Below, in pieces: positions 18,571 through 34,816 of a stretch of 64,000 nucleotides of DNA (positions are counted from its first letter, which is position 1; the number at the start of each line of letters is the position of its first letter). This stretch comes from Bacteroidota bacterium (GTDB lineage Bacteria > Bacteroidota > Bacteroidia > NS11-12g > UBA955): positions 2,955 through 66,954 of the forward strand of contig CANMBF010000009.1 in the NCBI GenBank assembly GCA_947496065.1, given 5' to 3'. Both the position numbers and the translations under genes were made by a program. The notes beneath the pieces are model-generated. The model saw only the letters and a list, made by a program, of their open reading frames with translations, ran no database searches and was not told the origin of the DNA.

Positions 18571-19926
18571 ATGAAAAAAATATTTACTAATTCAATTTTA
18601 GTGAAAAATTTTGCTTTGGCTGTTAGTTTTACACTTGCCACTTCATTATTTTCACAAAATGCGCCTATCGACTTTGAAACAGGCGGAAAAGGTGCTTCAT
18701 GGTCATGGTCATCTTTTGAAAACGTTGCCAATGCACCTTTAGAAATCGTTAACAACCCTAGCGCTACGGGTAAAAACACCTCTGCTAAAGTTGGTAAATT
18801 TACTTGCTTAATCGGTGGTCAACCTTGGGCTGGTTTCGAAAGCAAACACGGTGCTGATATCGGTAAATTCACTTTATCTGCATCTAACGCAATCGTTAAA
18901 ATCATGGTTTACAAATCTGTAATAAGTGATATAGGTATCAAATTTGCCACTGCTTCAGGTGGTTCTGATGGTGAGCTTAAGGTTGCCAACACCAAAACCA
19001 ATGAGTGGGAAGAATTGACTTTCGATTTTTCTTCAAGAATTGCATCTGGCGTTTCTACTGATATCGATCAAATCATTTTCTTTCTTGATTTTAAATTAAA
19101 CCCAGGAAGAACTTCTGATAATGTGTGTTATTTCGATAACGTTACATTCTCAAACGGTGTAACTTTGGCTGAGCCTACTGTTGCTGCTCCAACCCCAACT
19201 AAATTAGCTGCGAATGTTATTTCATTGTTTAGCAATGCCTATACCAACGTAACTGTTGATACTTGGAGAACTAGCTGGTCTGCAGCTACTTTAACTGATA
19301 TGCAAATTGCTGGTAACGACACTAAAAAATATACTGCATTAGATTTTGTTGGTGTTGAAACTGTTGCTAGCCAAATTAATGCTACTACTATGGATTCATT
19401 CCATTTAGACATGTGGACCCCAAATGCTACTGATTTCAAAGTAAAATTGGTTGACTTCGGTGCAAATGGTGCATTTGGTGGTGGCGATGATGTTGAACAT
19501 CAATTAAGCTTTACGCCAACATCTAAAGTTTGGAACCGTATTTCTGTTCCTATGTCAGCTTTCACTGGTTTAACAACTAAAGGCCATATTGCACAAATCA
19601 TTTTTGTGGGTGTGCCAAGCGGTACTTCAGTAGTATACATCGATAACGTTATGTTTAGTAAAATCGCTGCAGCTTCAAATGTTGCTGCTATTGCTAAAGC
19701 AAACGTATCTGTATATCCTAACCCTGCCAACGACAACTTAAACATCACTGCTGATCATGCTATCCATACTTTTAGCATCACTAACAGCATTGGTCAAGAA
19801 GTAATGACTGTTGCTCCAAATGCAAACAGTACAGTAATCAATACTGCTAATTTAAGCACTGGCATTTACACAGTTAAAACAACTGTAAATGGCGTTGTTT
19901 CTGTTGCTAAAATTGTAATTAACTAA
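18571..19926 (+). CDS. T9SS-secreted protein with two carbohydrate-binding (CBM-like) jelly-roll domains
   Basis: Signal peptide; WEELTFDFS..YFDNV and W..ISVPMSAF..VYIDNV modules; VYPNPAND T9SS type A CTD; no catalytic motif seen. Confidence 0.75.
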   Translation: MKKIFTNSILVKNFALAVSFTLATSLFSQNAPIDFETGGKGASWSWSSFENVANAPLEIVNNPSATGKNTSAKVGKFTCLIGGQPWAGFESKHGADIGKFTLSASNAIVKIMVYKSVISDIGIKFATASGGSDGELKVANTKTNEWEELTFDFSSRIASGVSTDIDQIIFFLDFKLNPGRTSDNVCYFDNVTFSNGVTLAEPTVAAPTPTKLAANVISLFSNAYTNVTVDTWRTSWSAATLTDMQIAGNDTKKYTALDFVGVETVASQINATTMDSFHLDMWTPNATDFKVKLVDFGANGAFGGGDDVEHQLSFTPTSKVWNRISVPMSAFTGLTTKGHIAQIIFVGVPSGTSVVYIDNVMFSKIAAASNVAAIAKANVSVYPNPANDNLNITADHAIHTFSITNSIGQEVMTVAPNANSTVINTANLSTGIYTVKTTVNGVVSVAKIVIN

Positions 19927-19939
19927 TTTTTAAAAATTT

Positions 19940-19979
19940 AAAATGTTGGGCTACCATCTGTTAGCCCAACATTTTTTTT
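19940..19979 (+). terminator. Terminator after the CBM/T9SS gene
   Basis: aaaatgttgggcta...tagcccaacatttt plus T run. Confidence 0.85.
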
Positions 19980-20068
19980 GTCCCTACTTTTCTTCCTCAA
20001 TTATTTCCTAACTTTCCCATTTTTAACAAACGACTGAATCAATTCCTTTTGTCTACAAACTTACAACT

Positions 20069-21421
20069 ATGCCACTCACTATGAACATTAGACAATTCCT
20101 TTTATTAGCCAGCCTATTCAATGGTTTATTGGCTTGGTCGCAAACCACCATTCTAAAAACCGACACTGGCTATACTTTTATGAGAAATGGTTCACCCTAC
20201 TATGTAAAAGGTGTAGGCGGCGAAGTTAATTTTGATAAAATGATCGCCATTGGTGCCAACTCCTTCAGAACTTGGGGTGTTGACAATGCGCAAAAACTTT
20301 TAGACGAAGCCCAATCAAAAGGCTTAACCGTTATGCTAGGCTTATGGCTTCAGCACGAACGCCACGGATTCGATTATGACAATGCTGAAAAAGTAAAAAG
20401 TCAACTCGAGTATTTCAAAACCGTTATCAATCAATTTAAAAATCATCCTGCCCTTCTCATGTGGGGCATAGGCAACGAGCTCGATCTCGATTATACCAAT
20501 CCAAATTGTTGGAATGCAGTTCAAGATATAGCCAAATACATTCACCAAACAGATCCCAATCACCCTACCTCTACCGTTACCGCTGGCCTCGATTCACTCG
20601 AAGTAAAACACATTATGGCACGCTGCCCTGATATTGATGTATACTGTGTGAATACCTATGGCGACATTCCCAATGTGCCTAATAAAATTAGTGATTACGG
20701 TTGGAAAGGCCCCTTTATGATTACAGAATGGGGGCCGAACGGGCACTGGGAATCACCACAAACCAATTGGAAAGTGTCGCTCGAACAAAGCAGTACGGAA
20801 AAAACCAATTCTTACTATACGCGTTACACCCAATTCATAGCACCTTACAGCAGCCGGTGTTTGGGCTCTTATGCTTTTTTATGGGGTGCTAAACAAGAGT
20901 ATACCGAAACATGGTACGGCCTTTTTTCGAAAGATAATATTCCAACCGAGCCCATCGATGCACTCGAAATGTTGTTCACCCATAAACCCATTGCCAAGCC
21001 TGCTCCCTCTATTTTAAAATTAAGTGTCAATGGGCTTATAGCCACAGAAAATGTAGAACTGAAAGCCGAAAACGATTATGCTGCGGTAGTCGAAATTCTT
21101 CTTAAAGATTCATTGTCCAATCCAGCAGTGCAATATACATGGCGCATTATGGCCGAAAGCACCGATAAAAAATCGGGTGGCGATGTTGAAAATGAAGCCG
21201 AAGAAATTACGGGTCTTATTTTTAGCGGCAAGTCAAAAAACAACATCCGTTTTCATGCACCTTCCATCCCTGGTCAATACCGCCTTTTTGTTGCCGTAAT
21301 ATGTAATGGGAAATTAGCTTATGCCAACTTGCCTTTCCTTATTTTACCGCGCACTGAAGGCGATAAACAAGCCCGCTTTATTAAATTCAAAACCACCAAT
21401 ATGAAAGCCTTTGAACAATAA
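20069..21421 (+). CDS. Clan GH-A TIM-barrel glycoside hydrolase (GH2_C-like, possibly GH158-type beta-1,3-glucanase)
   Basis: GANSFRTW, HPALLMWGIGNE (acid/base), ITEWG (nucleophile), signal peptide. Confidence 0.75.
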   Translation: MPLTMNIRQFLLLASLFNGLLAWSQTTILKTDTGYTFMRNGSPYYVKGVGGEVNFDKMIAIGANSFRTWGVDNAQKLLDEAQSKGLTVMLGLWLQHERHGFDYDNAEKVKSQLEYFKTVINQFKNHPALLMWGIGNELDLDYTNPNCWNAVQDIAKYIHQTDPNHPTSTVTAGLDSLEVKHIMARCPDIDVYCVNTYGDIPNVPNKISDYGWKGPFMITEWGPNGHWESPQTNWKVSLEQSSTEKTNSYYTRYTQFIAPYSSRCLGSYAFLWGAKQEYTETWYGLFSKDNIPTEPIDALEMLFTHKPIAKPAPSILKLSVNGLIATENVELKAENDYAAVVEILLKDSLSNPAVQYTWRIMAESTDKKSGGDVENEAEEITGLIFSGKSKNNIRFHAPSIPGQYRLFVAVICNGKLAYANLPFLILPRTEGDKQARFIKFKTTNMKAFEQ

Positions 21422-21428
21422 CTGATCG

Positions 21429-23303
21429 ATGAATAAAAATAATACTATTGGTTTTTTATTGACGCTCTGCTTGGGTTCTTCTTTGTTATCGCAAAACAAA
21501 ACACGAGATACCGCTAAGCGGTACGCCCCTCCTTCTATGCTGCCTAAGCCCGGGGCAGTCGCTCAAAAACCAATGAGCCCTCTAGAAAATTTAGAGATTA
21601 GTGGGTATTACCGTTTCATTACCAACTACCGTCAACTATACGAAACCTACAGCCATTTGGCGAACAACAAAAACAATATTTTTGTTGGCGATGATTCGCA
21701 AATTCCACAGTTAATGCTCAACATTAAAGGCGATGCTAATAGCAGAACTTCATTTGGTACCGACTTATTTCTTTGGGCCCCGATGACAGGCGAAGGTGAA
21801 AAAGAAAATGTAAAGGGACTTAATTTAGGGGTTAATTTATCTGGCAACTTTGCTACTGATATTGGCAGTTTTTTGGTAAAAGCAGGTGGTATTAATTGGT
21901 ACGCACTCTCTCCTTTTACTTTTCAAACGAGCAAAGGCAATAACCGTTACAGTTTGTTCGAACGCAATCCATGGGATCCAAATACAGCAAAGGTGGATTC
22001 ACGCTATGTCGATTTTTATAGTGCAGGTGCTTTAAATCAAGACTTGCGTTGGGGTAACCAAGCCTTCCATGGTTTAATTGTTGAAGGCAGTCAATTACCA
22101 CATAACTTTTCTTTCAGTGCCATGTATGGCAAAACCCAATTCGATGGTGGCTTATCGGCCATTCCTAACAGTTCGATTGGTGGCCGCTTAACGAAATCTT
22201 ATAATGGTAGAAACTTCATAGCGCTGAATACTTTTAATAACGATAGCTATACCGATTCCATTAGCACCAAGCGCGCTGGCTTTAACATGGTAACCACCGA
22301 ATTCAAACACCATTTTAAACGCATAAAATTATATGGCGAAATTGGTGTTGGTCGCAACTTTGTTTCTAACCTCACCAGCAAATGGGGTGAAGCCATTTCA
22401 ATAAAAATTTCATCCGACATTCAACGAAAATTTCCAACTGAATTGCATGTATTTCGTGTGAGTCCAAATGTATTTAACAACAGTTCTGTTTTTATCAATT
22501 CTTCGATCCAACAAACTACACCTACTAATTCACTTACACAACCAGTGCTCATAGCCGTTTCGAGCGCCTTGTTACCGATTGGTCAGATGTCCAACAACCG
22601 CCAAGGGTTTGAGCTGAATTCACAAATTAATTTGGGCCGTTTGAAAAACAATATTGGCTATAGTAACGCAGTTGAATTAGAAAATTTGTCACCTAAAATT
22701 ACTTACACCCACGCCTTTAATAATTTATCACTTTCGCGCTTTTGGCGTTGGGATTTTCCTAGCAATGTTGGACCTTACAAAAACTTAAGTAAAATTTACC
22801 GCTCGGTTTTCGAAACCGTTTACTTAACAGAATTAAATACAGCCAACGGTAAACCTTTATTTAAAAAATACTTCAACACTTTCGAAATAAATTCGAAATA
22901 CAAAACTAAAATTTTGCGCAAAGATGCCTACTTCTTTTATTTAGGTTCTGTCAATTCTATTCAAAATTTTGCAGCACCCTTCACCGTGTTTTCAGAAAAA
23001 GCTTTGCTGCGCGCCTACTACCATCAATTCGAAGGGTATGTAAAATTGGCGCCCAAACTGGTATGGACCAACTATGTCAGCTTCGAGCGCATTATTGCGA
23101 ATTATAGCACCCAAGTGGATGCAATTTCTAAACGCCCCAAAAATCAACAAGGATTCTCATTTGCAACAGGGGCCGATATACAATTAAGCAAAGGCGCTGG
23201 TCTATATATTCGTCAACGCTGGATGAATTATAAAGACAAGAGTTTTTCTCTCGATCATTACAGAGGTTTTGAAACCACCATTGAAGTCAAAATATTCTTT
23301 TAA
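21429..23303 (+). CDS. Hypothetical outer-membrane beta-barrel protein
   Basis: Signal peptide, alternating beta-strand pattern, C-terminal TTIEVKIFF beta-signal; no TonB plug recognised. Confidence 0.65.
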   Translation: MNKNNTIGFLLTLCLGSSLLSQNKTRDTAKRYAPPSMLPKPGAVAQKPMSPLENLEISGYYRFITNYRQLYETYSHLANNKNNIFVGDDSQIPQLMLNIKGDANSRTSFGTDLFLWAPMTGEGEKENVKGLNLGVNLSGNFATDIGSFLVKAGGINWYALSPFTFQTSKGNNRYSLFERNPWDPNTAKVDSRYVDFYSAGALNQDLRWGNQAFHGLIVEGSQLPHNFSFSAMYGKTQFDGGLSAIPNSSIGGRLTKSYNGRNFIALNTFNNDSYTDSISTKRAGFNMVTTEFKHHFKRIKLYGEIGVGRNFVSNLTSKWGEAISIKISSDIQRKFPTELHVFRVSPNVFNNSSVFINSSIQQTTPTNSLTQPVLIAVSSALLPIGQMSNNRQGFELNSQINLGRLKNNIGYSNAVELENLSPKITYTHAFNNLSLSRFWRWDFPSNVGPYKNLSKIYRSVFETVYLTELNTANGKPLFKKYFNTFEINSKYKTKILRKDAYFFYLGSVNSIQNFAAPFTVFSEKALLRAYYHQFEGYVKLAPKLVWTNYVSFERIIANYSTQVDAISKRPKNQQGFSFATGADIQLSKGAGLYIRQRWMNYKDKSFSLDHYRGFETTIEVKIFF

Positions 23304-23308
23304 AACTT

Positions 23309-25087
23309 ATGAACTACACACAAAAGAAAAATTTAAATTCCATTACAAATAAAGCAAATATGCCTACTGTCAAAGTAAAATATAGAATTGGGTTAACGTT
23401 TTTGTTAATCTTTTCATTGCAATTAAATGCGCAAAAAGACCGCAAACTGACCTTCGTAGGGGGTGCGCGTTCTATTCTTAACAATGGCCGCTTAATTGTC
23501 AATGATAGCATTCCTGATACCACCACCGTAAAACGCAATGAAGGCGGTTATGCCCTCATCGATTTAGGGGTGAATATTAAGCCCAATAAAAATACAGAAA
23601 TCATGGGCATGTTCAGGATTAAAAATAATTTTGGTGGTTTCTGGGGTTCAGGTGTTTCTTTCGATGTGCGTCAATTATGGATTAAAGGTATTGTTGGCAA
23701 TGTGCTGCGTTACCAGTTGGGCGACTTGAATCTGAAACAAAGTAAATTCACCTTGTATAACCACCATGCCGACCAAATCGATAGTTTACCAGCCATTTTT
23801 AACTTGCAACAAAATATTGTAAACTATGAGCGTTTTTATATGAACAACAATACTTGGCGTATGCAAGGTGCTAATGTTGATTTTGGTTTTACCTTCTCTA
23901 AATTTTTAAAGGAAATTAATTTCACAGCTTTTTTAACCCGCTTAAATGCAACCAATTTTGGAAATGTTTCCGACCGTTTAATGAATGCCTACAGTGTGCA
24001 AATTGTAAAGAATAACCACTTGGCATTAACCGGACATACCAATACTATATTCGATGTAAATGGCACCACCAATAATAAAAATTTATTCAATAATTCTGTC
24101 AATAGCATTGAATGGAAATATGAAAACAAATTAAAATCCGATAACACGTACAGTTTTGCTGGTGAATTCGGCAATAGCCACTATTACTACTCAGCCGATA
24201 CCACTGCCCCATATTTAAGCGATTATTTTATCCATGCCTTCGCGCAAATGAATTTGAAGAAAGTGAACTTGAATGTTACAGCTGGTTACCTCAATGTAGG
24301 GGCCGATTTTAGAAGCATAGGCGCACAAAGCAAAGATGTTAACTACAATGCCTTGCCCACTTATTTCAACCGCTATACCAATACACAAGTCATTCGCCCG
24401 ACGACTTTGTTTGATGTTATTAGCAATGAAAATATATACAATCGCACCATCAACAACAATTTAATGAGCGGAAGCCAATTGTTTAACAATGTATTGCCCT
24501 ATGGTTTGGCAACCTTCAACCGTGTGGGCGCTTACCTTAAATTGAATTACAAAAACAAAAAAGACTTAATGGCCAATGCCGAGTACTATAATTTGAGTGA
24601 AATACGAGGACAAGGGACAACAGCCCTTAAACAATTTGCTATCTATAAAATGAATGTGAATGTGCCATTTCACAAACTATTAAATTTGAAAAGAACCTTG
24701 TCCATTCAAGCGGGTACCAATCTACAAATGGCCAATCGCAAAGGCAATGAAGCCATCGAAGATGTGGATTTAAAAATGATGCAAACAACGGCCGGTTTGC
24801 GTTGGGAGTTCTCACCCGACTTTGAATTAATTGCAGGCCTAGTGAACCAAACCAACAAAGGCAATGATTTTTCAGCCGATAGAAATGGCTTTACCGAAGT
24901 CACTTATTTTCAATTGAACAATTATAACCTGACACAACAAATAACTGCTGTAGGTTTGCGTTATAATTTTACGCCTAAAATATACCTCTGCGCCCTTTAC
25001 CAACAAAGTAATTACCAAGACAAAAAACAAAACAATGCCAATTTTAAAATCAATCAATTTGGCATCATTTACAATATTATTTTATAA
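23309..25087 (+). CDS. Hypothetical outer-membrane beta-barrel protein
   Basis: Signal peptide (..SLQLNAQ); amphipathic strands AGLRWEF, VGLRYNF, QFGIIYNIIL. Confidence 0.65.
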   Translation: MNYTQKKNLNSITNKANMPTVKVKYRIGLTFLLIFSLQLNAQKDRKLTFVGGARSILNNGRLIVNDSIPDTTTVKRNEGGYALIDLGVNIKPNKNTEIMGMFRIKNNFGGFWGSGVSFDVRQLWIKGIVGNVLRYQLGDLNLKQSKFTLYNHHADQIDSLPAIFNLQQNIVNYERFYMNNNTWRMQGANVDFGFTFSKFLKEINFTAFLTRLNATNFGNVSDRLMNAYSVQIVKNNHLALTGHTNTIFDVNGTTNNKNLFNNSVNSIEWKYENKLKSDNTYSFAGEFGNSHYYYSADTTAPYLSDYFIHAFAQMNLKKVNLNVTAGYLNVGADFRSIGAQSKDVNYNALPTYFNRYTNTQVIRPTTLFDVISNENIYNRTINNNLMSGSQLFNNVLPYGLATFNRVGAYLKLNYKNKKDLMANAEYYNLSEIRGQGTTALKQFAIYKMNVNVPFHKLLNLKRTLSIQAGTNLQMANRKGNEAIEDVDLKMMQTTAGLRWEFSPDFELIAGLVNQTNKGNDFSADRNGFTEVTYFQLNNYNLTQQITAVGLRYNFTPKIYLCALYQQSNYQDKKQNNANFKINQFGIIYNIIL

Positions 25088-25090
25088 AAA

Positions 25091-26095
25091 ATGAAATACA
25101 AGATACAACTGCTAGCCTTAATTACCCTTGCACTTTTCGCTTGCCGAAAAGATAAAAGCAAAGTGGATGGCCCCAGCATTTCAGAAATATTTAGCGATTT
25201 TAAAGTGGCCGAAACTTTTAAATGCAGCAAAGACAGTGTTAACTTTAATAAAGGTGAAACGGCTTTCTTTACCGCCCGTTTTAACAAGATTGTAAAGTGG
25301 ACCATTACCATACAAGGCAATACATCTAAAGCGATAAAAATCATTAATGGCGAAAGCAAAGCCATCAATGCTAGCAACTCCTCTTGGAATGGTAGCACAT
25401 CAGTATTCCCTATGTTTGCCAAAGAATTTTGTTTGGCCAAATTAAAGGTTAAAGATATTACCGATTCTTTCACTACTAATGTGCGCATAAGCAATACCAA
25501 AAAATTAGAAGGTGTAATTGTAGCCGATTTCGAAACAGGTCTTAATGCCAAATGGACCCGCTTTGCACAAAGTGGAGCCAACATGGATTTTCAAATTAAA
25601 ACTGATGCCTTTGCCCCTCAAGGCAAATCTTATTTAAACATGGCGGGTACTGTGAATTGGGATTATCTCATTGGCCTTATGGATTTTCCAGGTAATGCCT
25701 ACAGCGCTGCACCCACTTTTCCCTTGCCTACCAACCCGGAATCGGTGTATTTTAATTGTTTGATTTATGGGGTTAATAATACCAATACTTCTCTAGTCTT
25801 ATTTCAATTTAAAGAAGATGAAAATGCCGATGGTATTATTAATGCCAACAACGAAGATGAATACGATTACCAAGTAACGGTTGATTGGGTGGGTTGGAAG
25901 CTTATCTCCATTAAGTATTCAGATATTGTGACTTTGGTAAATGGCAGCCCAGCTTCCGCCAAAGGCAACGGCTTGCACAATCCCGATAAAATTGGAAAAA
26001 TATCGATGTTACATCTCGCCAATCCTAATAATGGTTTTGCAAGTTCTAAGCTTGATTTAATGATGTTCACTTTGAATAAACCACTAGAGCCTTGA
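25091..26095 (+). CDS. Lipoprotein with Ig-like and CBM11-like glycan-binding domain
   Basis: Lipobox LFAC; VADFETG...VDWVGWKLISIKYSD. Confidence 0.65.
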   Translation: MKYKIQLLALITLALFACRKDKSKVDGPSISEIFSDFKVAETFKCSKDSVNFNKGETAFFTARFNKIVKWTITIQGNTSKAIKIINGESKAINASNSSWNGSTSVFPMFAKEFCLAKLKVKDITDSFTTNVRISNTKKLEGVIVADFETGLNAKWTRFAQSGANMDFQIKTDAFAPQGKSYLNMAGTVNWDYLIGLMDFPGNAYSAAPTFPLPTNPESVYFNCLIYGVNNTNTSLVLFQFKEDENADGIINANNEDEYDYQVTVDWVGWKLISIKYSDIVTLVNGSPASAKGNGLHNPDKIGKISMLHLANPNNGFASSKLDLMMFTLNKPLEP

Positions 26096-26826
26096 GAAAA
26101 TTTTATTTATATATCTGCAGCATCTTTTGTCTAGCCTTAATGTTATTTTCATGTAACTATATTTTAGAAACTGAGAACGGAAAAGTGGCGCATAAGCGCG
26201 TTGATAAAAACGGAAATGTTATTGATCCTCATTCAAAAAACAAATTTATTTCAGTACAAAAACTAAACTTATACGATGAGCCATTAGTGGCCGATACCAA
26301 TTCAATTAATGGGTTTAAAGCCACCACCATTTTTGGTGATGCTTACGACAAAAGTGTTTGGGTTTCACCCGAGGTCGAATGCGTGGAAATGCGCACCGAA
26401 AAAACTAATGTATTCAGTGGCAATAGTGCATTAAAAGTTACTTGGAATAAAATTGCTGGTGGTTGCAAATGGATAGGCATTGGTTTTGGTTGGAACAATT
26501 GGATGGCCAAAGACATGCTCGATATTACCCAAGTAGCTGCGGTTGAAATGCAAGTAAAATCTGTAAAAGGCTCATTCAAAAATTTACCGGTAGCTTTTGC
26601 ATTCGAAGATTACTCAGGCATTCAAAACTACTATGGTTTCCGCTACGAATTGGCCGCTGGCGAATTCAATGATCAAACATGGACCACCGTTACCATTCCG
26701 CTTTCTAAATTCGAATTGGATACCAAAGATTTTAACCTCGAAAAAGTTAAACAATTCATGATACAACTCGAAGGTGAAGGTGATATTTACCTCGATAATA
26801 TCCGCTTTATTACGCTACAACAATGA
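26092..26826 (+). CDS. Lipoprotein with CBM30/CBM11-like domain
   Basis: Lipobox LFSC; WTTVTIPLSKF, IYLDNIRF. Confidence 0.65.
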   Translation: MRKFYLYICSIFCLALMLFSCNYILETENGKVAHKRVDKNGNVIDPHSKNKFISVQKLNLYDEPLVADTNSINGFKATTIFGDAYDKSVWVSPEVECVEMRTEKTNVFSGNSALKVTWNKIAGGCKWIGIGFGWNNWMAKDMLDITQVAAVEMQVKSVKGSFKNLPVAFAFEDYSGIQNYYGFRYELAAGEFNDQTWTTVTIPLSKFELDTKDFNLEKVKQFMIQLEGEGDIYLDNIRFITLQQ

Positions 26827-29078
26827 AACAACTGAACCTGTTATTAACGGCCCTTTTTTTCTTTTTATATACTGCCTCACACGCCCAAGGTGCTGCTAAA
26901 TCTGTGAATATCGATTCACTCATTGGGCTCATGAGCATCGAAGAGAAAGCAGGACAAATGACCCAAATCGACTTAGGCGTTATAGCCGAAGGTGGCATCT
27001 GCAATCTTAAAAATCCACAGACCCTTAACCTCGACAAATTAAAAACCGCCATAGCCAAATACCATATCGGTTCTATCCTGAATGTTGGCTGTGGTAGTGG
27101 TACCATATCGCTCGAGAATTGGCATAAAATATTGGCCACCATTGTAGCCGAGAATAAAAAAAATAGCAGATTAAACATTCCGATTATTTATGGAATCGAT
27201 GCCATCCATGGCGCCAATTATACCATGGGCGCTACTTTGTTCCCCCAACAAATTGGCCAGGCCGCAACATGGAATCCTTTATTGGTTCAGCAACTCTATG
27301 GTATTACCGCTTACGAAACCCGTGCCTCTGGTATTCCTTGGAATTTTTCACCCGTGCTCGACCTCGGTCGACAGCCCCTGTGGTCGCGCTTCTTTGAATC
27401 ATTTGGCGAAGATGTATTGCTTGCTAAATCAATGACCAAAAGTGCCATCCGCGGACTCGAAGGCAACACCCCTAACAGTCCTTATGCAGTGGCTTCTTGC
27501 ATGAAACATTTCTTGGGTTATAGTATGCCATTAAGTGGTAAAGACCGCACCCCAGCATGGATTAGCGACCGTGAATTGCGCGAATATTTTTTACCTACTT
27601 TTCAAATGGCCATACAACAAGGGGCCAAAACAGTGATGATAAATTCGGGTGAAATCAATGGTACCCCTGTGCACGCGAACTACGATATTTTAACCACCTT
27701 GCTCAGAAATGAATTAGGTTTTAAAGGCGTAGCCGTTACCGATTGGGAAGACGTCTACAAATTAGTAAATGTTCACCGCGTGGCCGAAACAAAAAAAGAA
27801 GCCGTTCGCATGGCCATCATGGCGGGCATCGATATGAGCATGACCCCCAACGATTTTGAGTTTACCGAACTTCTCATCCAATTGATTAAAGAAGGTACCA
27901 TTCCCATGGCCCGTATCGATCAATCTGTAAAACGCATTCTACAATTGAAAGTTGACATGGGTCTCTTCAATGAAACCCGTTTCAATAAAAATTTATATCC
28001 ACTCTTTGGTTCGACACAACATGCCAGCGTGAGTTATAATGGTGCTGCCGAAAGTTTAACCCTTTTAAAAAATAAAGACCAAATTTTGCCTTTAAACGCT
28101 GCCAAAGAAACCATTTTGGTATGTGGACCAGCTGCCAATAGTTTAAATCTCTTAAATGGCGCCTGGACCCACACATGGCAAGGCATTGATGCCCGCTTTA
28201 ATACACCAGGCAAACTCACCATCCAACAAGCCATACAAAAGCAAATGGCCAAAACCAATTTTTACTATTTGCCGGGATGCACCACCGATAGTGTGATTAA
28301 TATTGAAGCCTGTGTTGAAGCCGCCAAAAAAGTCTCTAAAATTATTGTTTGCTTAGGCGAAACACCCTGCACTGAATTGCCGGGTAATATTGATGATTTA
28401 AGTTTATCGGAACCCCAACAACAATTGGTCAAAGCTTTGAGTGCTTTGCATAAACCCATTATTTTGGTTTGTTGTTTTAACCGCCCTCGCATTATTAAGA
28501 ATATTGCGCCTTTGGCCGATGCCATCTTGTATGCCTACCTACCGGGTGATGAAGGTGGACTTGCCATTACCGATGCTTTGTTTGGCAAAATCAATCCGAG
28601 TGGTAAATTGCCTTTTACATACCCTGCAAATGTCAATGCATTTGTTCACTATGACCATAAAAGTTCAGAAGACTTAGATGTAGATTTTTCGAACAATGCT
28701 TACCGCCCACAATTCGATTTTGGCTTTGGCTTAAGCTATACCACTTTCGAATACCAAACCTTTACGATGAGCACCAATTCGCTGGGTGATAAAGATTCAG
28801 TGACCGTCAGCGTGGTTGTTAAAAATACAGGCAGTCGCGAAGGCATGGAAGTGGTGCAATTGTACTACCACGATTTAGTAGCCTCAATTACCCCATCTGT
28901 AAAAAAATTGGTGGCCTTTCAAAAAATAAAATTGGCCCCTCAAGCCATTCAAACTGTAACATTCACTTTGCACAAAAACGATTTCTCCTTTATCAATAAA
29001 GCTTTAAAACGCGTGACCGAAAATGGTGAATTCGAACTCCTCATTCAAAATCAAAAACAATCTTTATATGTCCACTAG
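26823..29078 (+). CDS. Beta-glucosidase, GH3 (BglX-like) with Fn3-like C-terminus
   Basis: GIDAIHG, CMKHFLGY, VTDW nucleophile, FGFGLSYT, EVVQLY. Confidence 0.95.
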   Translation: MKQLNLLLTALFFFLYTASHAQGAAKSVNIDSLIGLMSIEEKAGQMTQIDLGVIAEGGICNLKNPQTLNLDKLKTAIAKYHIGSILNVGCGSGTISLENWHKILATIVAENKKNSRLNIPIIYGIDAIHGANYTMGATLFPQQIGQAATWNPLLVQQLYGITAYETRASGIPWNFSPVLDLGRQPLWSRFFESFGEDVLLAKSMTKSAIRGLEGNTPNSPYAVASCMKHFLGYSMPLSGKDRTPAWISDRELREYFLPTFQMAIQQGAKTVMINSGEINGTPVHANYDILTTLLRNELGFKGVAVTDWEDVYKLVNVHRVAETKKEAVRMAIMAGIDMSMTPNDFEFTELLIQLIKEGTIPMARIDQSVKRILQLKVDMGLFNETRFNKNLYPLFGSTQHASVSYNGAAESLTLLKNKDQILPLNAAKETILVCGPAANSLNLLNGAWTHTWQGIDARFNTPGKLTIQQAIQKQMAKTNFYYLPGCTTDSVINIEACVEAAKKVSKIIVCLGETPCTELPGNIDDLSLSEPQQQLVKALSALHKPIILVCCFNRPRIIKNIAPLADAILYAYLPGDEGGLAITDALFGKINPSGKLPFTYPANVNAFVHYDHKSSEDLDVDFSNNAYRPQFDFGFGLSYTTFEYQTFTMSTNSLGDKDSVTVSVVVKNTGSREGMEVVQLYYHDLVASITPSVKKLVAFQKIKLAPQAIQTVTFTLHKNDFSFINKALKRVTENGEFELLIQNQKQSLYVH

Positions 29079-29901
29079 TCGCATTTTATTTTCGCTTAGC
29101 CTTTGTTTTTTTTTATTCGCTTGTAAACAATCGGCACCACCCGATATTCAACTACCCGACGAAAAAGGCAGCTTGTTTTTTTCAGGTTATTATTTCAATT
29201 ATAAAAATGCAGACAACCCCGTAGGTCCTGGGCCCAATCGCTTTGCAGGCAATTCAGAAAGTGCTTATGTAGATAGCTTAGGTCGCTTGCACATGAAAAT
29301 CATCAAGAAAAATAATTTCTGGTACAGTAGCGAAATTGTAAGTGTGAAAGAATTTAAATACGGTACTTATACCTTTACTTGCGAAACCGATATTAGAAAC
29401 TTCGATCAAAAAGTGGTGTTCGGTTTTTTTACTTGGGACGATTATTCCTTCCAAACCCAAGGCAATAGCGAGATAGATGTTGAATTCGCCAAATGGGATG
29501 TGGCCAGCGATACCAACTTGGTAACCTATAGCGCCCAACCTGTTATTTTTAGTAATCCTACCGCTTATAAAGAACGCACTTACAAACCCGCCATTCCTAC
29601 AAAATACATCAGCAAAACTACCACGTATATGATGCGTTGGACAAGTGATAGCATTGCTTGGGAAAGCTATGAAGGGGAAACCTATCCAGGACCTAATAAA
29701 CTGTCTAAATGGAGTTTTAACAAGAACAATATCCCGCGTTCTAAAATTGAAAACTCACTGAGCTCAAACCCAATCGTCGTGCCTCAACCCACCGACTCAA
29801 CCAATGTGCGCATCAACTTCTGGTTGCTCAATGGTGCCGCCCCGGTGAATGGTCAAAACCACGAAATCATTATCAAGAATTTTACTTACAAACCGCTTTA
29901 A
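29068..29901 (+). CDS. GH16 family lipoprotein (ATG at 29068)
   Basis: Catalytic EIDVE motif, lipobox LFAC, YGTYTF. Confidence 0.8.
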   Translation: MSTSRILFSLSLCFFLFACKQSAPPDIQLPDEKGSLFFSGYYFNYKNADNPVGPGPNRFAGNSESAYVDSLGRLHMKIIKKNNFWYSSEIVSVKEFKYGTYTFTCETDIRNFDQKVVFGFFTWDDYSFQTQGNSEIDVEFAKWDVASDTNLVTYSAQPVIFSNPTAYKERTYKPAIPTKYISKTTTYMMRWTSDSIAWESYEGETYPGPNKLSKWSFNKNNIPRSKIENSLSSNPIVVPQPTDSTNVRINFWLLNGAAPVNGQNHEIIIKNFTYKPL

Positions 29902-29933: not shown

Positions 29934-32900
29934 CTAGTGTGCAATCATTAAACGAACGTTGCCTATATTTTTAGTGGTATTAAATCGCAGCATATAAAGT
30001 CCCGCAGGCAATTGCTCTGTTGATATTATCAACTGTTGTGATTGTGGTGTAAACGTTGCTACCACCTTTCCGTCGGCTGTACTCAATTCGACCCATGCAA
30101 TGGCGTGAAAGGCTTGTATTTGAAATATTTGATCGGCAGGATTTGGATACACACGCCAACCTAAAATAGCTAATTCGTCAAGATCTCCACTCGGTGCTTC
30201 TTTCTCTATTTTTATTTTGTATAACTTGCTTACCAAACCATTTTGCGATTTCACTAAGAAAGGGATGGTATCCGTAAAATTATTGTTAGTAATACCACTC
30301 TTTTGCGCCACACTTAAAACACTCGCTTTGGCACTATCGCTCAAAGTAAATACGCCTGTTAAATTCGTTAAGTCGGTATTAAACGGCACTGTTATATTTA
30401 AAAATCCACCACCAGTTGTTTTGGTGATAACCCCAGTATCTGCAGGACTCGCCAAACAGTAGGTGAATAATTCAGCTTTATCGTTTTTCAGAACAGTGGC
30501 AGTAACATCATATATTTTAGAAAAATTGGTATCCTGTGCAATCACTTTGTATTTTAAAATACTTTTGTAATTGTTAGCAGAACTGCCACTAATTTGTTTC
30601 ACATTTTGCACATAAGCTGTAGCACTATCACTTACTTTAAAATTGGCCACTAAGGCACTCAATCCACTACCAAACGGCAAGGTTAAAGCCACTGTTCCCC
30701 CTGTCGTGCCAATAGTTGTAATGACCCCATTAACAGCAGGACTCTGTATACTGTATTGCAACAAATCGCACGATTGGCTTTTACCCATTTTAACATAAAC
30801 AATATAGGTTTTGCTAACCGTTGTGTCCTGCGCTATTACTTGATAAATCAATGGTGATGTAAAATCATTCAGCGTTAGGTTGCTGTTCTGTTTAATATTC
30901 GACACCTTAGCATTTGCGCTATCACTCAAAGTAAACCATGCTTTGATAGCTGTTAAATTTGTTCCATAAGGCACTGTTAAATTCACATTGCCTCCGCTGC
31001 CTGTTGGTGTTAGGGTGCCTGTAACAGCAGGACTCACAAACCCATAAGTCAACAAATCGCAAGCTGTATTTTTATTGGTATAAACCGTTACCGTATAGGT
31101 TTTGGTTAAAGTTATGTCCTTGGCTTTGATGGTATAGGTGACCACCGTTTTAAAATTATTTTTAGTGATAGAACTGCCCTGTAAAACCGCACCGATGTAG
31201 GCCGTTGAGGTATCACTTAAAGTGAAAGTTGCCATCAGTGAATCGCGTTTGGTACCGTAAGGTACATAACAACTAATGTTTCCTCCTGTTGGCGTTTGGG
31301 TGACAATATCCTTGGTACTCAAACCTGCAAAAGTGTAGGTCTTGATGCCCAAGAAAAATAGAGTTGAATCAGCGATGGCATTGTTGGTATTCCCTACCAA
31401 ATCAGCAAAGGCAGAAGCAGCAATATTTAAATTCACTTTGCCATTGTTAATCGGACTGATTTTAGCCGTATAAACCAAGGCACTTTGTTGTACAAAATTT
31501 GACAAAGTACCATTGCTTACTACAAGATCTTTGGCTTCAAAACCATCTAATATTTCTGAAGCTTTAAATGTGGCTATAAAACTATTGCCCACTGTCGGCT
31601 TAGGAATGTTAACGCTGAGCGAAGGTTTAGTTTTATCTATCATTACAGAATAATCTTCGCTTTGCCCATAACTTAAAGCACCACAAGGTGCGTTCACTGT
31701 TGCAAAATCGCTGACTACACGTAGTCGCAAAAACTTACTAGTTACTATAGGGTTCACTGGTATACTAATCGTGCATGATTGTTTGCCTTTGCCACTGCCA
31801 ATAGTACCTACTAATTCACCGGCATCGTTCATCACCCCATTGTTATTAAAATCGATGTAAATTTTTGCATTCTCATTGTTATAAGTACCGCTCGTTACAG
31901 AGGCCGTATAGGTATTACCTGCCTTTACAATGGTGGCATTGTTGCACGTAAAATCTTCGTAACTAAAAGCGCCTGCATTCGATGATTTATCGATGGTGTT
32001 CAATTCAAATCGATAAATACCGATGCCATAGCCCCCTAAAATATTTGTGGTCGTAATACAGGAAGCGGCAGTGCCCAAGCCCGCATAATTATACATGTTA
32101 CTTTTAGTGTTACTGCCTTTGGCATTGGATACAGTTAAACTGATGGTGTAATTGCCATAGGTATTAAATTGTACTTCCGCACGGCTCGATAAAGAATCAG
32201 TACCATTTACATACGACCAGCCTTTGGCCGGCAGTATTTGCCACCTTCTGTTGGCGGGCGAACCCATGGAATTATCCACCATGATCATCGCATTGGCACA
32301 AGTTTGTGAACTCGAATTCTGCACTGTAAAATCGGCCACAGGCGGTACCGAAGCGGTTTTGAATAAATCGGATTGCCAAATGCCGCGACCATAAGTGGCA
32401 ATGTGCAAGCGACCCTTGCTAGTGCCATCGCTCATGATTTCCATATCAGAAATTTGGGCAACAGTTGGCATGCCATTCGAAAAGTTAATCCAGTTCTTAT
32501 AAAATTTATTTCTGTAATACACCCCAAAAGCGGTGGCCACATACATGCTAGAGTCGTTTGATTTTTGATCCAATAAAAATTTAATCACAGTGACTGCTGG
32601 TAAATTTTTATTCAACAAACTCCAGTTATTGCCCTTATCATTGCTGCGTAAAATGCGCGATTGGGTGGTTACTATAATTACTAAATTGCTGTCATAATCG
32701 CAGGTTTCTATTTGCTTAATTTGCTCGCCGCTATTAAAAGGAAAAGCAACTGCAGAATAGTTTGGCGCAGCAGAATTTATATCGGTACTTCTGTATAAAA
32801 ACTGCGTGTTATAAGCCATATAGAAAGTACCTTTTGAAATCTTCGAATACGCCAAAGCATTTGGCGTTGTGTTGCCGCTGATATTGGATATTTGCGTCCA

Positions 32901-34364
32901 AGTAACACCACTTGCAGGATTGACCCTTAAATTGGAGGTGCGGTATAAGTTGGTCTTAATTTCAAATAACACATTGCTGTCTTTGGGATGCACTGCATAG
33001 ATGCCGCCTTGGCCATTAATACCAGCCGTTGCAAAGCTAGCAATGTTGCGTTTAATGCCCCCATTCTCATACAACATACTGCTATCAAAAGCATCGAAGG
33101 CAAAGTCGCCACCCCAGTCGCCACCGCGCACCGTATAAAACTTTTTATCAATGGCCACATCCATGCCATTGTCTTGCAAACCACCGATAATATAATCGTT
33201 GTACAAAACACTGTTGCCCATTTTATAAAATTCAGAGGCACTTAAGCCATCTTCTAAAGTTGTCCATTTATTACCACCATCTGTTGTGCGATCGATACCA
33301 CCATCGTGGTAAACAAATAATTTATTGCTATTAAAAGGCGAATACAAATAGCCGTGCTTATCGGCGTGCACACCATAAGCCCAAGGCGATTTCATGGTAA
33401 AATTAACACCCCCATTGGTCGATTTCCAAATACAAATGCCAGCCACAAAAATCGTATTGGCATCCTTTGGATCAACAGCTATTGCGAGGTTATAAGACCC
33501 TTGACCATCCATGCTGCTGCCATTGCTCGAATAACCCAACACATTGGGCGTGTCAACCTGCAAAGTAAAAGTCTTACCATTGTTTGTTGATTTATAAACC
33601 CCTCCAAATGGACTGGTTCCGCCACTCTTCCAAACCACACAATACAATCGATTGGTATCGCTTTGGCATACGCCGATTTTTATCCCTGCACAGGTAATGC
33701 TTGAATTGATATCAGATTGGGTCCAGGTATTACCATTATCATAAGAACGGTAAAAATAAGAATTGGTAGCTGCGTAAATAATTGTGTTGCTTTGCGGACG
33801 GTAATATAAGTCGCGGTAAGATGAATTTACAGTGGTTTTCTTCACCCATGTTTTGCCTGCATCGGTTGATTTGTAGATACCATTATAACATGCTGCAATT
33901 AATATATTCGTATCATTAGGTGTATAGCGAATATAAGACACCAATTGATTACCAATGCCGCCTGTGGTTTGAAACCAAGTAGCACCCCCATCGTTGGTTC
34001 GCCATACACCGAGGCCACCGCCATTGTAATTGGCATCACCTGTACCTAATATCATTACTTTAGGATTGAGTTTATTGATGGCCAATGAAGCACAAGCAGT
34101 TTGAGGCAAGCCATCACTTATGGGGCGCCAAGTAGCACCTTCGTTCGAAGATTTAAAAACGCCACCAGATGCGGTTACTGCAAATAAAATATTGGAATCG
34201 GTAGGGTGATAAACCAATTCACAAACGCGGCCCATACCAGTCGTTTGTACACTGGGATTATCAGGAAATTTAACGGGCCCTACTTGGGTAAAATTGGCCA
34301 AGTTTTGGGCTTTACATATTGTAAAAATGGTCAATAAAAAAAGGCTGCTTAAAATCTGTCTCAT
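29934..34364 (-). CDS. T9SS-secreted BNR/VPS10 beta-propeller protein with PKD, GEVED, Ig-like and four DUF5018-like repeats (start MRQIL at 34364)
   Basis: Asp-box repeats S.D.G.TW, VHADKH, GGLQDNG, ATYGRGIW, GQSEDY, VYPNPA CTD. Confidence 0.85.
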   Translation of the reverse strand: MRQILSSLFLLTIFTICKAQNLANFTQVGPVKFPDNPSVQTTGMGRVCELVYHPTDSNILFAVTASGGVFKSSNEGATWRPISDGLPQTACASLAINKLNPKVMILGTGDANYNGGGLGVWRTNDGGATWFQTTGGIGNQLVSYIRYTPNDTNILIAACYNGIYKSTDAGKTWVKKTTVNSSYRDLYYRPQSNTIIYAATNSYFYRSYDNGNTWTQSDINSSITCAGIKIGVCQSDTNRLYCVVWKSGGTSPFGGVYKSTNNGKTFTLQVDTPNVLGYSSNGSSMDGQGSYNLAIAVDPKDANTIFVAGICIWKSTNGGVNFTMKSPWAYGVHADKHGYLYSPFNSNKLFVYHDGGIDRTTDGGNKWTTLEDGLSASEFYKMGNSVLYNDYIIGGLQDNGMDVAIDKKFYTVRGGDWGGDFAFDAFDSSMLYENGGIKRNIASFATAGINGQGGIYAVHPKDSNVLFEIKTNLYRTSNLRVNPASGVTWTQISNISGNTTPNALAYSKISKGTFYMAYNTQFLYRSTDINSAAPNYSAVAFPFNSGEQIKQIETCDYDSNLVIIVTTQSRILRSNDKGNNWSLLNKNLPAVTVIKFLLDQKSNDSSMYVATAFGVYYRNKFYKNWINFSNGMPTVAQISDMEIMSDGTSKGRLHIATYGRGIWQSDLFKTASVPPVADFTVQNSSSQTCANAMIMVDNSMGSPANRRWQILPAKGWSYVNGTDSLSSRAEVQFNTYGNYTISLTVSNAKGSNTKSNMYNYAGLGTAASCITTTNILGGYGIGIYRFELNTIDKSSNAGAFSYEDFTCNNATIVKAGNTYTASVTSGTYNNENAKIYIDFNNNGVMNDAGELVGTIGSGKGKQSCTISIPVNPIVTSKFLRLRVVSDFATVNAPCGALSYGQSEDYSVMIDKTKPSLSVNIPKPTVGNSFIATFKASEILDGFEAKDLVVSNGTLSNFVQQSALVYTAKISPINNGKVNLNIAASAFADLVGNTNNAIADSTLFFLGIKTYTFAGLSTKDIVTQTPTGGNISCYVPYGTKRDSLMATFTLSDTSTAYIGAVLQGSSITKNNFKTVVTYTIKAKDITLTKTYTVTVYTNKNTACDLLTYGFVSPAVTGTLTPTGSGGNVNLTVPYGTNLTAIKAWFTLSDSANAKVSNIKQNSNLTLNDFTSPLIYQVIAQDTTVSKTYIVYVKMGKSQSCDLLQYSIQSPAVNGVITTIGTTGGTVALTLPFGSGLSALVANFKVSDSATAYVQNVKQISGSSANNYKSILKYKVIAQDTNFSKIYDVTATVLKNDKAELFTYCLASPADTGVITKTTGGGFLNITVPFNTDLTNLTGVFTLSDSAKASVLSVAQKSGITNNNFTDTIPFLVKSQNGLVSKLYKIKIEKEAPSGDLDELAILGWRVYPNPADQIFQIQAFHAIAWVELSTADGKVVATFTPQSQQLIISTEQLPAGLYMLRFNTTKNIGNVRLMIAH
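30200..31360 (-). repeat. Four ~97-aa intragenic Ig-like repeats
   Basis: FTLSD/FKVSD..A units recur at ~291-294 bp spacing. Confidence 0.8.
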
Positions 34365-34816
34365 CGGGTTAAAGTATCGTTTTTGGTTTTCTTCCATTGC
34401 TCTAGTTGTTCTTCGGGGGTCATGATGGTGCCATCTGGTTTTACGAGGTTTTTATTGCGTTGCTGCCAATTTAAAAAGCGCTTGTATTCATAGACGTAAT
34501 CAATGGGTTTGGCAGGTGCATCTTTGTCCTTGTCTTTTTCTTCTTTAAAAAGATCTTGTCCTTCCCCATCTTCCTCGGTAGGTTTTTCTTTATCGGCCCA
34601 GTAAGCTTCGAAAGAAGCGACTGCTTTGTAGTAGTTCACACCAGTGCTATCCATCATGGTGAGCCATAACTTATCGTCTATTTTGGGTGTTATCTGCACC
34701 TTAGCAATCTCAGGTGTTGCAGGTGCTTTGCTCTTACAAGCCATGTTAAAAAGCAAGCAGGCAAAGCCACCGAAGGCAATTAATTTTATATAAATCTTTG
34801 AAGGCATGAAGTACAA
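34361..34816 (-). CDS. Hypothetical lipoprotein, translationally coupled to the BNR protein
   Basis: Lipobox-like NMAC; stop overlaps the next start (ATGA at 34361-34364). Confidence 0.75.
   Translation of the reverse strand: MYFMPSKIYIKLIAFGGFACLLFNMACKSKAPATPEIAKVQITPKIDDKLWLTMMDSTGVNYYKAVASFEAYWADKEKPTEEDGEGQDLFKEEKDKDKDAPAKPIDYVYEYKRFLNWQQRNKNLVKPDGTIMTPEEQLEQWKKTKNDTLTR

Follow-up and report, generated by a model that had tools for sequence, protein, structure and literature searches.

Glycan uptake in Bacteroidota is taught as a process that depends on the outer-membrane pair SusC/SusD, and tools for the prediction of polysaccharide utilization loci (PULs) look for that pair. The beta(1,3)-glucan loci of Bacteroides studied by Dejean et al. 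in 2020 reportedly follow this pattern, combining enzymes of the glycoside hydrolase (GH) families GH158, GH16 and GH3 with SusC/SusD and the surface glycan-binding protein (SGBP) SGBP-B. A kind of cassette without SusC/SusD is already known from Cytophaga hutchinsonii and two other cellulolytic species. Passages of a study on C. hutchinsonii (PMC12016534) describe chu_1276-chu_1280 as an 'atypical PUL' that is needed for growth on cellulose and that encodes a pair of outer-membrane proteins, followed by two beta-sandwich proteins resembling SGBPs and by an endoglucanase. Here we analyze a locus of this kind in a freshwater Bacteroidota bacterium (assembly GCA_947496065.1), located in a stretch of 64,000 nucleotides (hereafter the window) of contig CANMBF010000009.1. 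Seven genes at positions 20069-29901 of the window encode a GH158 enzyme, two outer-membrane beta-barrels (B1 and B2), two lipoproteins (LP1 and LP2), a GH3 enzyme and a GH16-like lipoprotein. Judging from the encoded proteins, we are confident in assigning this operon as a predicted beta-1,3-glucan (laminarin-type) utilization locus, and we consider it fairly probable that the B1-B2-LP1-LP2 module stands where Bacteroidota normally have SusC/SusD.

An earlier note on this DNA had described eight co-directional genes, tightly spaced from position 20069 on. Analysis of the open reading frames (ORFs) confirmed the coordinates of all eight and their location on the + strand, and the order was colinear in related loci. 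From 20069 on, the genes are first separated by 7, 5 and 3 nt and then overlap by 4, 4 and 56 nt; the 56-nt overlap shrinks to 11 nt if the final gene begins at Met 29068. The first of the eight genes (18571-19926) lies 142 nt ahead of the others, and the gap contains a bidirectional intrinsic-terminator-like hairpin (19940-19975), identified by a consensus scan only, with a 14-bp stem including 5 GC pairs and a T-run after it. This hairpin sets the first gene apart as a separate transcription unit and thus leaves an operon of seven genes.

The enzymes of the operon were assigned from matches to solved structures and family models. The first gene (20069-21421, + strand), previously described as a clan-A glycoside hydrolase, encodes a GH158 endo-beta-1,3-glucanase homolog of 450 residues, which matches PDB entries 9oro ('Glycoside hydrolase family 158', E 1.9e-87, residues 28-423) and 6pal (E 5e-72), the latter being the solved GH158 enzyme from Bacteroides. 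The protein carries a signal peptide, with neither a lipobox nor a C-terminal tail for secretion through the type IX system (T9SS). The gene at 26823-29078 (+ strand) encodes a GH3 beta-glucosidase of 751 residues, in which the N-terminal domain (Glyco_hydro_3, E 2.1e-69), the C-terminal domain (E 1.5e-41) and an Fn3-like domain were all matched, in agreement with the family proposed before. The nearest NCBIfam models are exo-beta-1,3/1,6-glucosidase and BglX, both under the cut-off, and the enzyme is probably periplasmic because a signal peptide is present. The last gene (29023-29901, + strand; an ORF of 292 residues with a probable start at 29068) had been presented as a GH16 lipoprotein. 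The protein carries the catalytic-type motif EIDVE, which all 47 relatives show in the form E[IV]D[IV]E, and the family profile weakly matches the GH16 lichenases of Bacillus (1mac, E 1.3e-4). However, no Pfam model matched the protein, the GH16 model included, and we therefore describe it as a divergent GH16-like lipoprotein and not as a GH16 enzyme. A GH16 protein with T9SS signals and an MFS-like protein are encoded on other contigs of the same genome.

The combination of GH158, GH16 and GH3 is the same as in the beta(1,3)-glucan loci of Bacteroides, and LP2 matches the model for the binding domain of SGBP-B (see below). The operon differs from these loci in that no SusC/SusD is present, two plug-less barrels and LP1 being encoded in their place, and in that the GH158 enzyme has no lipoprotein signal.

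The two barrel genes, B1 (21429-23303, + strand, 624 residues) and B2 (23309-25087, + strand, 592 residues), gave no sequence match in Pfam, NCBIfam or PDB. The start of B2 is probably at Met 23360, since the relatives are about 570 residues long. Both proteins have hundreds of relatives annotated as 'hypothetical', and the NCBI locus tags of the two are consecutive. AlphaFold2 models based on 39 sequences for B1 and 40 for B2 were all-beta barrels (pLDDT 70 and 69, respectively; pTM 0.69), as expected from the earlier note, which had proposed outer-membrane barrels at both positions. The barrel begins shortly behind the signal peptide in both models, at about residue 53 in B1, from where it runs to the C-terminal FF, and at about residue 81 in B2. 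DSSP assigned 25 strand elements to B1 and 22 to B2, although the exact strand number is not fixed by the models. Fold searches with Foldseek and VIA-align identified only generic outer-membrane barrels, tied with one another and including porins, ushers, MtrB, LptD and the TonB-dependent transporters (TBDTs), among them SusC.

Since TBDTs appear in these results, B1 and B2 might be TonB-dependent transporters in disguise, which obtain a plug or a TonB-box element from another protein or from a disordered N-terminus and are energized in the same manner as SusC. The top-ranked structures do include SusC/TBDT barrels (for B1, 5t3r_D with Z 13.6 and a root-mean-square deviation of 4.2 over 373 residues), and TBDT matches were also retrieved with the model of CHU_1276, according to passages of PMC12016534. 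However, porins, ushers and MtrB rank equal to these matches, which align over the barrel part and not over the plug. Models of the Plug domain or of TonB receptors gave no match at E<=1 in any of the 39 B1 relatives or the 40 B2 relatives, nor in B1 and B2 themselves, and only about 30 to 40 disordered residues are located ahead of the first strand in the models. We consider a TonB-dependent mechanism of this type very improbable. Thus, based on the models, the fold searches and the Plug scans, neither B1 nor B2 folds as a plugged TonB-dependent receptor or as a soluble enzyme. The two were also compared with each other as candidate paralogs, and no relation was detected (BLASTP E 0.6, hhalign probability 1.3%).

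As plug-less putative channels encoded in glycan-use operons, B1 and B2 resemble the sugar porins of Proteobacteria (LamB, ScrY, chitoporin and CymA), which are among the structural matches. They differ from these porins by their larger size (approximately 570 mature residues vs 340 to 420), by showing no sequence relation to them and by working with dedicated lipoproteins.

A relationship to the chu_1276-1280 system of C. hutchinsonii had been suggested as a possibility, and for B1 this kinship is real. A search with the B1 protein of a cassette linked to a GH9 gene (see below) identified a protein of C. hutchinsonii ATCC 33406 at 43% identity (E 2e-169), as well as proteins of Sporocytophaga. 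The 90% cluster of the C. hutchinsonii protein contains ABG58548.1, named 'hypothetical protein CHU_1276', and a RefSeq entry named 'CHU_1276 family cellulose-binding protein'. The latter name is not derived from an NCBIfam hidden Markov model, because NCBIfam contains no model for CHU_1276, nor for B1, B2, LP1 or LP2. The B1 family of the window aligned with the CHU_1276 protein of C. hutchinsonii (P0478) at an hhalign probability of 100% (E 9.3e-53, 31% identity, 564 columns), and the alignment reaches the shared C-terminal motif ETT.E.KIFF. By profile comparison, B1 is a full-length homolog of CHU_1276.

The genes also follow the same order: in chu_1276-chu_1280 as in the present operon, the barrel gene is succeeded by genes for another outer-membrane protein, a pair of SGBP-like beta-sandwich lipoproteins and then a glycoside hydrolase. 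Two GH9-linked cassettes (L146 and L147) mirror the published order of five genes, and a lipoprotein of 380 and 381 residues in these two compares with the 375 residues reported for CHU_1279. The 380-residue lipoprotein gave a suggestive match to long forms of LP2 (hhalign probability 82%, E 1.1e-5). In the GH9 cassettes, genes of the B2 family are located after the CHU_1276-like genes, and the likeness of B2 to CHU_1277 is positional. The systems differ in their enzymes, which here are GH158, GH3 and GH16-like and point to soluble beta-1,3-glucan and not to crystalline cellulose. They also differ in LP2, which here consists of one domain, and in the host, here an aquatic bacterium in whose small genome no SusD was detected. 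With regard to function, passages of PMC12016534 state that growth on low glucose is poor in the chu_1276 mutant as well, and passages of PMC5553014 cite CHU_1277 as acting in the assimilation of cello-oligosaccharides; both observations suggest the passage of sugar.

The two genes downstream of the barrels were previously thought to encode lipoproteins similar to carbohydrate-binding modules (CBMs), and a lipobox Cys is present in both. LP1 (25091-26095, + strand, 334 residues) has the lipobox LFAC with an invariant Cys18 and a CBM11-like beta-sandwich in its C-terminal part; the match to CBM_11 is weak (E 1.1e-4) and under the cut-off. LP2 (26092-26826, + strand, 244 residues, TTG start) resembles the beta-sandwich of glycan-binding proteins and matches SGBP_B_XBD above the cut-off (E 1.8e-7, 31.9 bits vs 26.4). 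Some relatives of LP2 are without the lipobox Cys or are about 420 residues long. When LP1 and LP2 were compared with the SusD family, only CBM-type models of the beta-sandwich kind were matched.

We modeled B2 (residues 44-592) and LP1 (residues 19-334) as a complex, each with its own alignment. The model obtained an interface score (ipSAE) of 0.61 (0.60, 0.61 and 0.70 in three runs), as compared to 0.00 for the best of three controls. For reference, 58 of 80 solved complexes and 2 of 110 mismatched pairs attained this ipSAE mark, counts that hold only roughly here because own alignments were used. The runs had at least 80% of the contacts in common, and the partner pLDDT was at least 84. The confidently predicted contacts connect residues 19-34 of LP1, just after the lipidated Cys, to residues 329-332, 406, 432-438, 480-484 and 521-536 of B2, and the interface includes the invariant columns G27 in LP1 and G434 and G436 in B2. 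Neither protein has a solved relative by sequence, and the high score is therefore unlikely to be the memory of a solved complex. The model supports the hypothesis that LP1 binds B2. The ends of an outer-membrane barrel are located in the periplasm, and under this rule the order of strands puts the contact segments of B2 on the extracellular rim, which would place LP1 on the cell surface, at the rim of the barrel.

The arrangement is similar to SusC/SusD in that an outer-membrane barrel is co-encoded with a lipoprotein, which the model places at the extracellular rim, and in that the pair belongs to a glycan operon and recurs with varying sets of enzymes. It is different in that there is no plug, no match of SusC grade and no protein of the SusD fold family, and in that two unrelated barrels are present instead of one, with transport presumably not energized by TonB.

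Relatives of B1 are encoded in at least 327 species genomes, from which 80 loci were kept for counts of gene order; only those loci in which the DNA reaches far enough were included in each count. The 80 loci come from metagenome-assembled genomes of aquatic Bacteroidota, labeled as Chitinophagaceae, Crocinitomicaceae, Flavobacteriales and similar. In all 70 loci counted, the gene immediately upstream of B1 was GH158. Downstream of B1, we observed B2 in 69 of 69 loci, LP1 in 65 of 65 and LP2 in 62 of 62, whereas the GH16-like gene was present in 45 of 55 and the GH3 gene, on the same strand, in 39 of 56. The gene arrangement is not a product of chance, since colinearity extends to every related locus with sufficient DNA around it.

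The flanks of the 80 loci contained 377 ORFs, which were clustered. Pfam models were searched in all 65 multi-member clusters and, of the 126 singletons, in the longest half (63), the other 63 being no longer than about 310 residues. The recurrent flanking genes encode T9SS proteins with CBM48/X25 domains (40 ORFs), regulators of the NrtR type (24 ORFs), MFS-like proteins (19 ORFs) and GH16 proteins with a T9SS tail (12 ORFs). With this 40-ORF cluster, genes for T9SS-secreted binding proteins are the most frequent in the flanks.

A profile search of 1.84 billion representatives identified 299 clusters of the B1 family, and the names of distant B1 relatives were mostly blank. With a broad profile, of whose candidates at most three were scored per genome, we detected one to three copies of a B1-superfamily gene in 42 of the 401 genomes sampled from the class. 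The distribution is patchy, as the gene was found in 0 of 3 genomes of the same family and 0 of 9 genomes of the same order. Of 20 loci taken from 16 genomes, 19 have B1, B2 and LP1 side by side, and the remaining one is truncated at the end of a contig. In most loci of this class-level sample, GH158, GH16 and GH3 are accompanied by a sugar transporter (SSF or MFS) and by a regulator of the BguR or NrtR type. Among relatives in general, such a transporter is located inside or beside the cassette in L112, L113, L151, L152, L156, L158 and L031. The regulators (BguR-type, with Y_Y_Y and GerE domains, or NrtR-type) adjoin the cassette in relatives, and BguR is described as specific to beta-glucan loci in passages of a preprint (bioRxiv 10.64898/2026.01.10.698779).

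The cassette is also reused beside other enzymes. One genus has three cassettes per genome, with GH16 and GH3 genes beside L144 and L145, a GH9 gene with or without GH3 beside L146 and L147, and a beta-mannanase gene in L148 (PDB 2c0h, E 3e-31); L149 is located near a GH18 gene. The linkage of homologous B1-B2 pairs to carbohydrate-active enzymes, on which the earlier note had made its proposal depend, is therefore borne out, mostly with GH158, GH3 and GH16 and otherwise with GH9, GH16 or beta-mannanase. A locus in a high-GC genome of another class (L113, G473:C1:1267000-1286999) contains B2, LP1, a gene of 142 residues and GH158 beside an MFS sugar transporter; B1 was not detected in the 20 kb, and the locus may represent the module in a minimal form. 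Three ORFs of L113 (two of 917 residues and one of 813) that seemed to carry N-terminal fusions were rejected as over-extended ORFs of a high-GC genome.

We also considered that the barrels and lipoproteins serve an unrelated function in the envelope, such as the export of polysaccharides or outer-membrane biogenesis, and are merely located beside the hydrolases. AlgE, Wzi, LptD and BamA-type barrels are also listed by the fold searches, and a search with a language model pointed to DUF6029 (PF19494), a family of about 560 residues and thus of barrel size, which 113 of 151 class genomes encode, nearly always in single copy. However, the identity with DUF6029 was rejected, since it matched 0 of 39 relatives of B1 and 0 of 40 of B2, and the hhalign probability was below 1%. 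The DUF6029 alignment consisted of 21 rows, one of which (L095) is from genome G094, flagged as unpublished, so that the negative comparison depends on this genome to a small extent. The single DUF6029 gene of the present genome is located on another contig (G000:C1:31677-33350). Furthermore, linkage to glycoside hydrolases was observed in all loci examined and for several substrates, with no conserved glycosyltransferase or export genes nearby. Three distant B1 relatives of 792-804 residues (P0275, P0291 and P0293) have an N-terminal CBM_4_9 domain fused to a B1-type barrel, which also weighs against this reading. Taken together, an unrelated envelope function appears exceedingly improbable. 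If the CBM_4_9 domain of these relatives is on the surface, the N-terminus must reach outside, which has a bearing on the topology of the barrel.

No SusC, SusD or hybrid two-component system protein was detected in the window by family scans, as the earlier note had observed. We extended the search to the whole assembly (2.91 Mb, 96.6% complete). Three Pfam models of SusD gave no match, in a search whose sensitivity may be limited (only 148 of the 401 class genomes gave a match), and SusD is therefore recorded as not found rather than absent. The SusC model TIGR04056 gave only N-terminal partial matches under the cut-off, and phmmer with two SusD examples and one SusC example gave no match in the assembly. 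Based on the position in the operon, the strict conservation, the modular reuse, the lack of a SusC/D-type match in the genome, the phenotypes of C. hutchinsonii and the model of B2 with LP1, the best-supported explanation is that the barrel-lipoprotein module is a device for capture and import at the outer membrane, an explanation that we favor with moderate confidence. The proposal of an alternative machine dedicated to beta-1,3-glucan is thus supported by the plug-less barrels, the linkage to carbohydrate-active enzymes and the rarity of susCD beside related pairs, while import itself is inferred.

According to this explanation, the CBM-like lipoproteins would hold the glucan at the cell surface, aided by the T9SS protein encoded upstream, and the glucan would be cut by the GH16-like lipoprotein and by the T9SS GH16 protein encoded elsewhere in the genome. 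The oligosaccharides would then cross the outer membrane through the plug-less barrels without energy from TonB, with LP1 positioned on the extracellular rim of B2. In the periplasm, GH158 (endo) and GH3 (exo) would complete the breakdown, and the glucose would be taken up by a sugar transporter in the inner membrane, encoded elsewhere here and within the locus in many relatives.

Besides the limit on the SusD search, several observations weigh against capture and import by this module. In a manual cross-check of the lists, 24 of the 42 carrier genomes also gave a SusD match, because of which 'alternative' is a better description than 'replacement' of SusCD. A susC/susD pair within 10 kb was seen in 2 of the 80 related loci, and in both of these, from Flavobacteriales genomes (L062:209-8346 and L063:1671-6994), susC-susD is located directly upstream of GH158-B1-B2-LP1-LP2 on the same strand. 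These two are hybrid loci with both outer-membrane systems side by side; their small number also means that the B1-B2 pairs as a rule do not travel with an adjacent susCD. No inner-membrane sugar transporter or regulator is encoded beside the operon in the window. The AlphaFold2 models of the barrels are of middling confidence, and the most conserved motifs of B1 (GGINW, FERNPWDP and RWGNQAF) are located in long loops of low pLDDT, which may line or gate the pore; conserved loops of B1 comprise residues 160-210, 350-376 and 432-458. The periplasmic location of GH158 is a guess from a sequence with neither lipobox nor T9SS tail. Finally, the phenotypes in C. hutchinsonii include the loss of cell-associated beta-glucosidase activity, as stated in passages of PMC5553014, which fits a scaffolding role as well as import.

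The last point leads to the main rival, in which the barrels are not channels but outer-membrane platforms that anchor, export or organize the lipoproteins and enzymes of the surface, for example by displaying LP1 and LP2 or by docking T9SS cargo, and the sugar enters by another route. In agreement with a platform, the complex model shows the rim of B2 holding the N-terminal tether of LP1, and the T9SS-secreted binding proteins are the commonest genes in the flanks of the 80 loci. However, no SusC/D-type importer was found in the genome that could take the product, and the impairment of the chu_1276 mutant on low glucose and the reported part of CHU_1277 in cello-oligosaccharide assimilation speak for the passage of sugar. 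In addition, inner-membrane sugar transporters are encoded inside the cassette in relatives, and two barrels of about 600 residues are large for mere anchors. We consider the platform unlikely, and the import of oligosaccharides by the module remains the explanation that we prefer.

In a wider and more tentative proposal, to which we give slightly less than even chances, B1-B2-LP1(-LP2) would be a second, general and TonB-independent machine for glycan uptake in Bacteroidota. It would be modular over beta-1,3-glucan, cellulose, mannan and perhaps other substrates, with LP1 on the rim of B2 converging on the design of SusC/SusD, and it would serve as the main route of import where no SusD is found. 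The system of C. hutchinsonii would then be a special case.

Three findings are new: that the cassette exists in a beta-1,3-glucan version, that it has spread over hundreds of uncultured species of aquatic habitats, and that it is reused for different substrates. Searches of the literature on CHU_1276/1277, on GH158 and laminarin and on atypical PULs showed, among titles and the openings of abstracts, no account of such a cassette in beta-1,3-glucan loci. A conserved module free of SusC/D is present in roughly one in ten of the genomes sampled from the class (42 of 401), and at least 327 species genomes encode a close relative, which implies that a capacity for laminarin-type glucans, and probably for cellulose and mannan, has been overlooked in aquatic and soil Bacteroidota. 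The analysis also ties the long-unexplained cellulose system of C. hutchinsonii to a large family of proteins acting on soluble substrates, and such substrates make transport assays and structural work far easier.

The gene upstream of the operon (18571-19926, + strand) encodes a T9SS-secreted surface protein of 451 residues with N-terminal beta-sandwich domains. It had been described as a T9SS protein consisting of CBMs only. The C-terminal sorting domain was confirmed (Por_Secre_tail, E 2.8e-12), whereas the CBM label stands only in part, since residues 53-161 match PDB 8qx6 (E 1.4e-6) but no Pfam CBM model was matched. The protein is likely to be an accessory glycan binder. Relatives of it are located near the cassette in 14 of the 80 loci and in several of the class-level loci.

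Three other genes of the window are mentioned here. A gene 18 kb upstream of the operon (128-1489, - strand) encodes a GH1 beta-glucosidase (E 8e-132), which could represent the cytoplasmic end of the same pathway. A gene on the opposite strand (29934-34397, - strand) converges on the end of the operon and encodes a T9SS-secreted protein of 1487 residues with Sortilin/BNR repeats and GEVED, Big_12 and PKD domains. This protein has four paralogs in the genome and matches weakly, under the cut-off, the F510_1955 glycosylhydrolase family (E 2.3e-32), and it may be a further glycan-active protein of the surface. The gene at 35211-37121 (+ strand) encodes a patatin-like phospholipase of 636 residues with no evident link to the operon.

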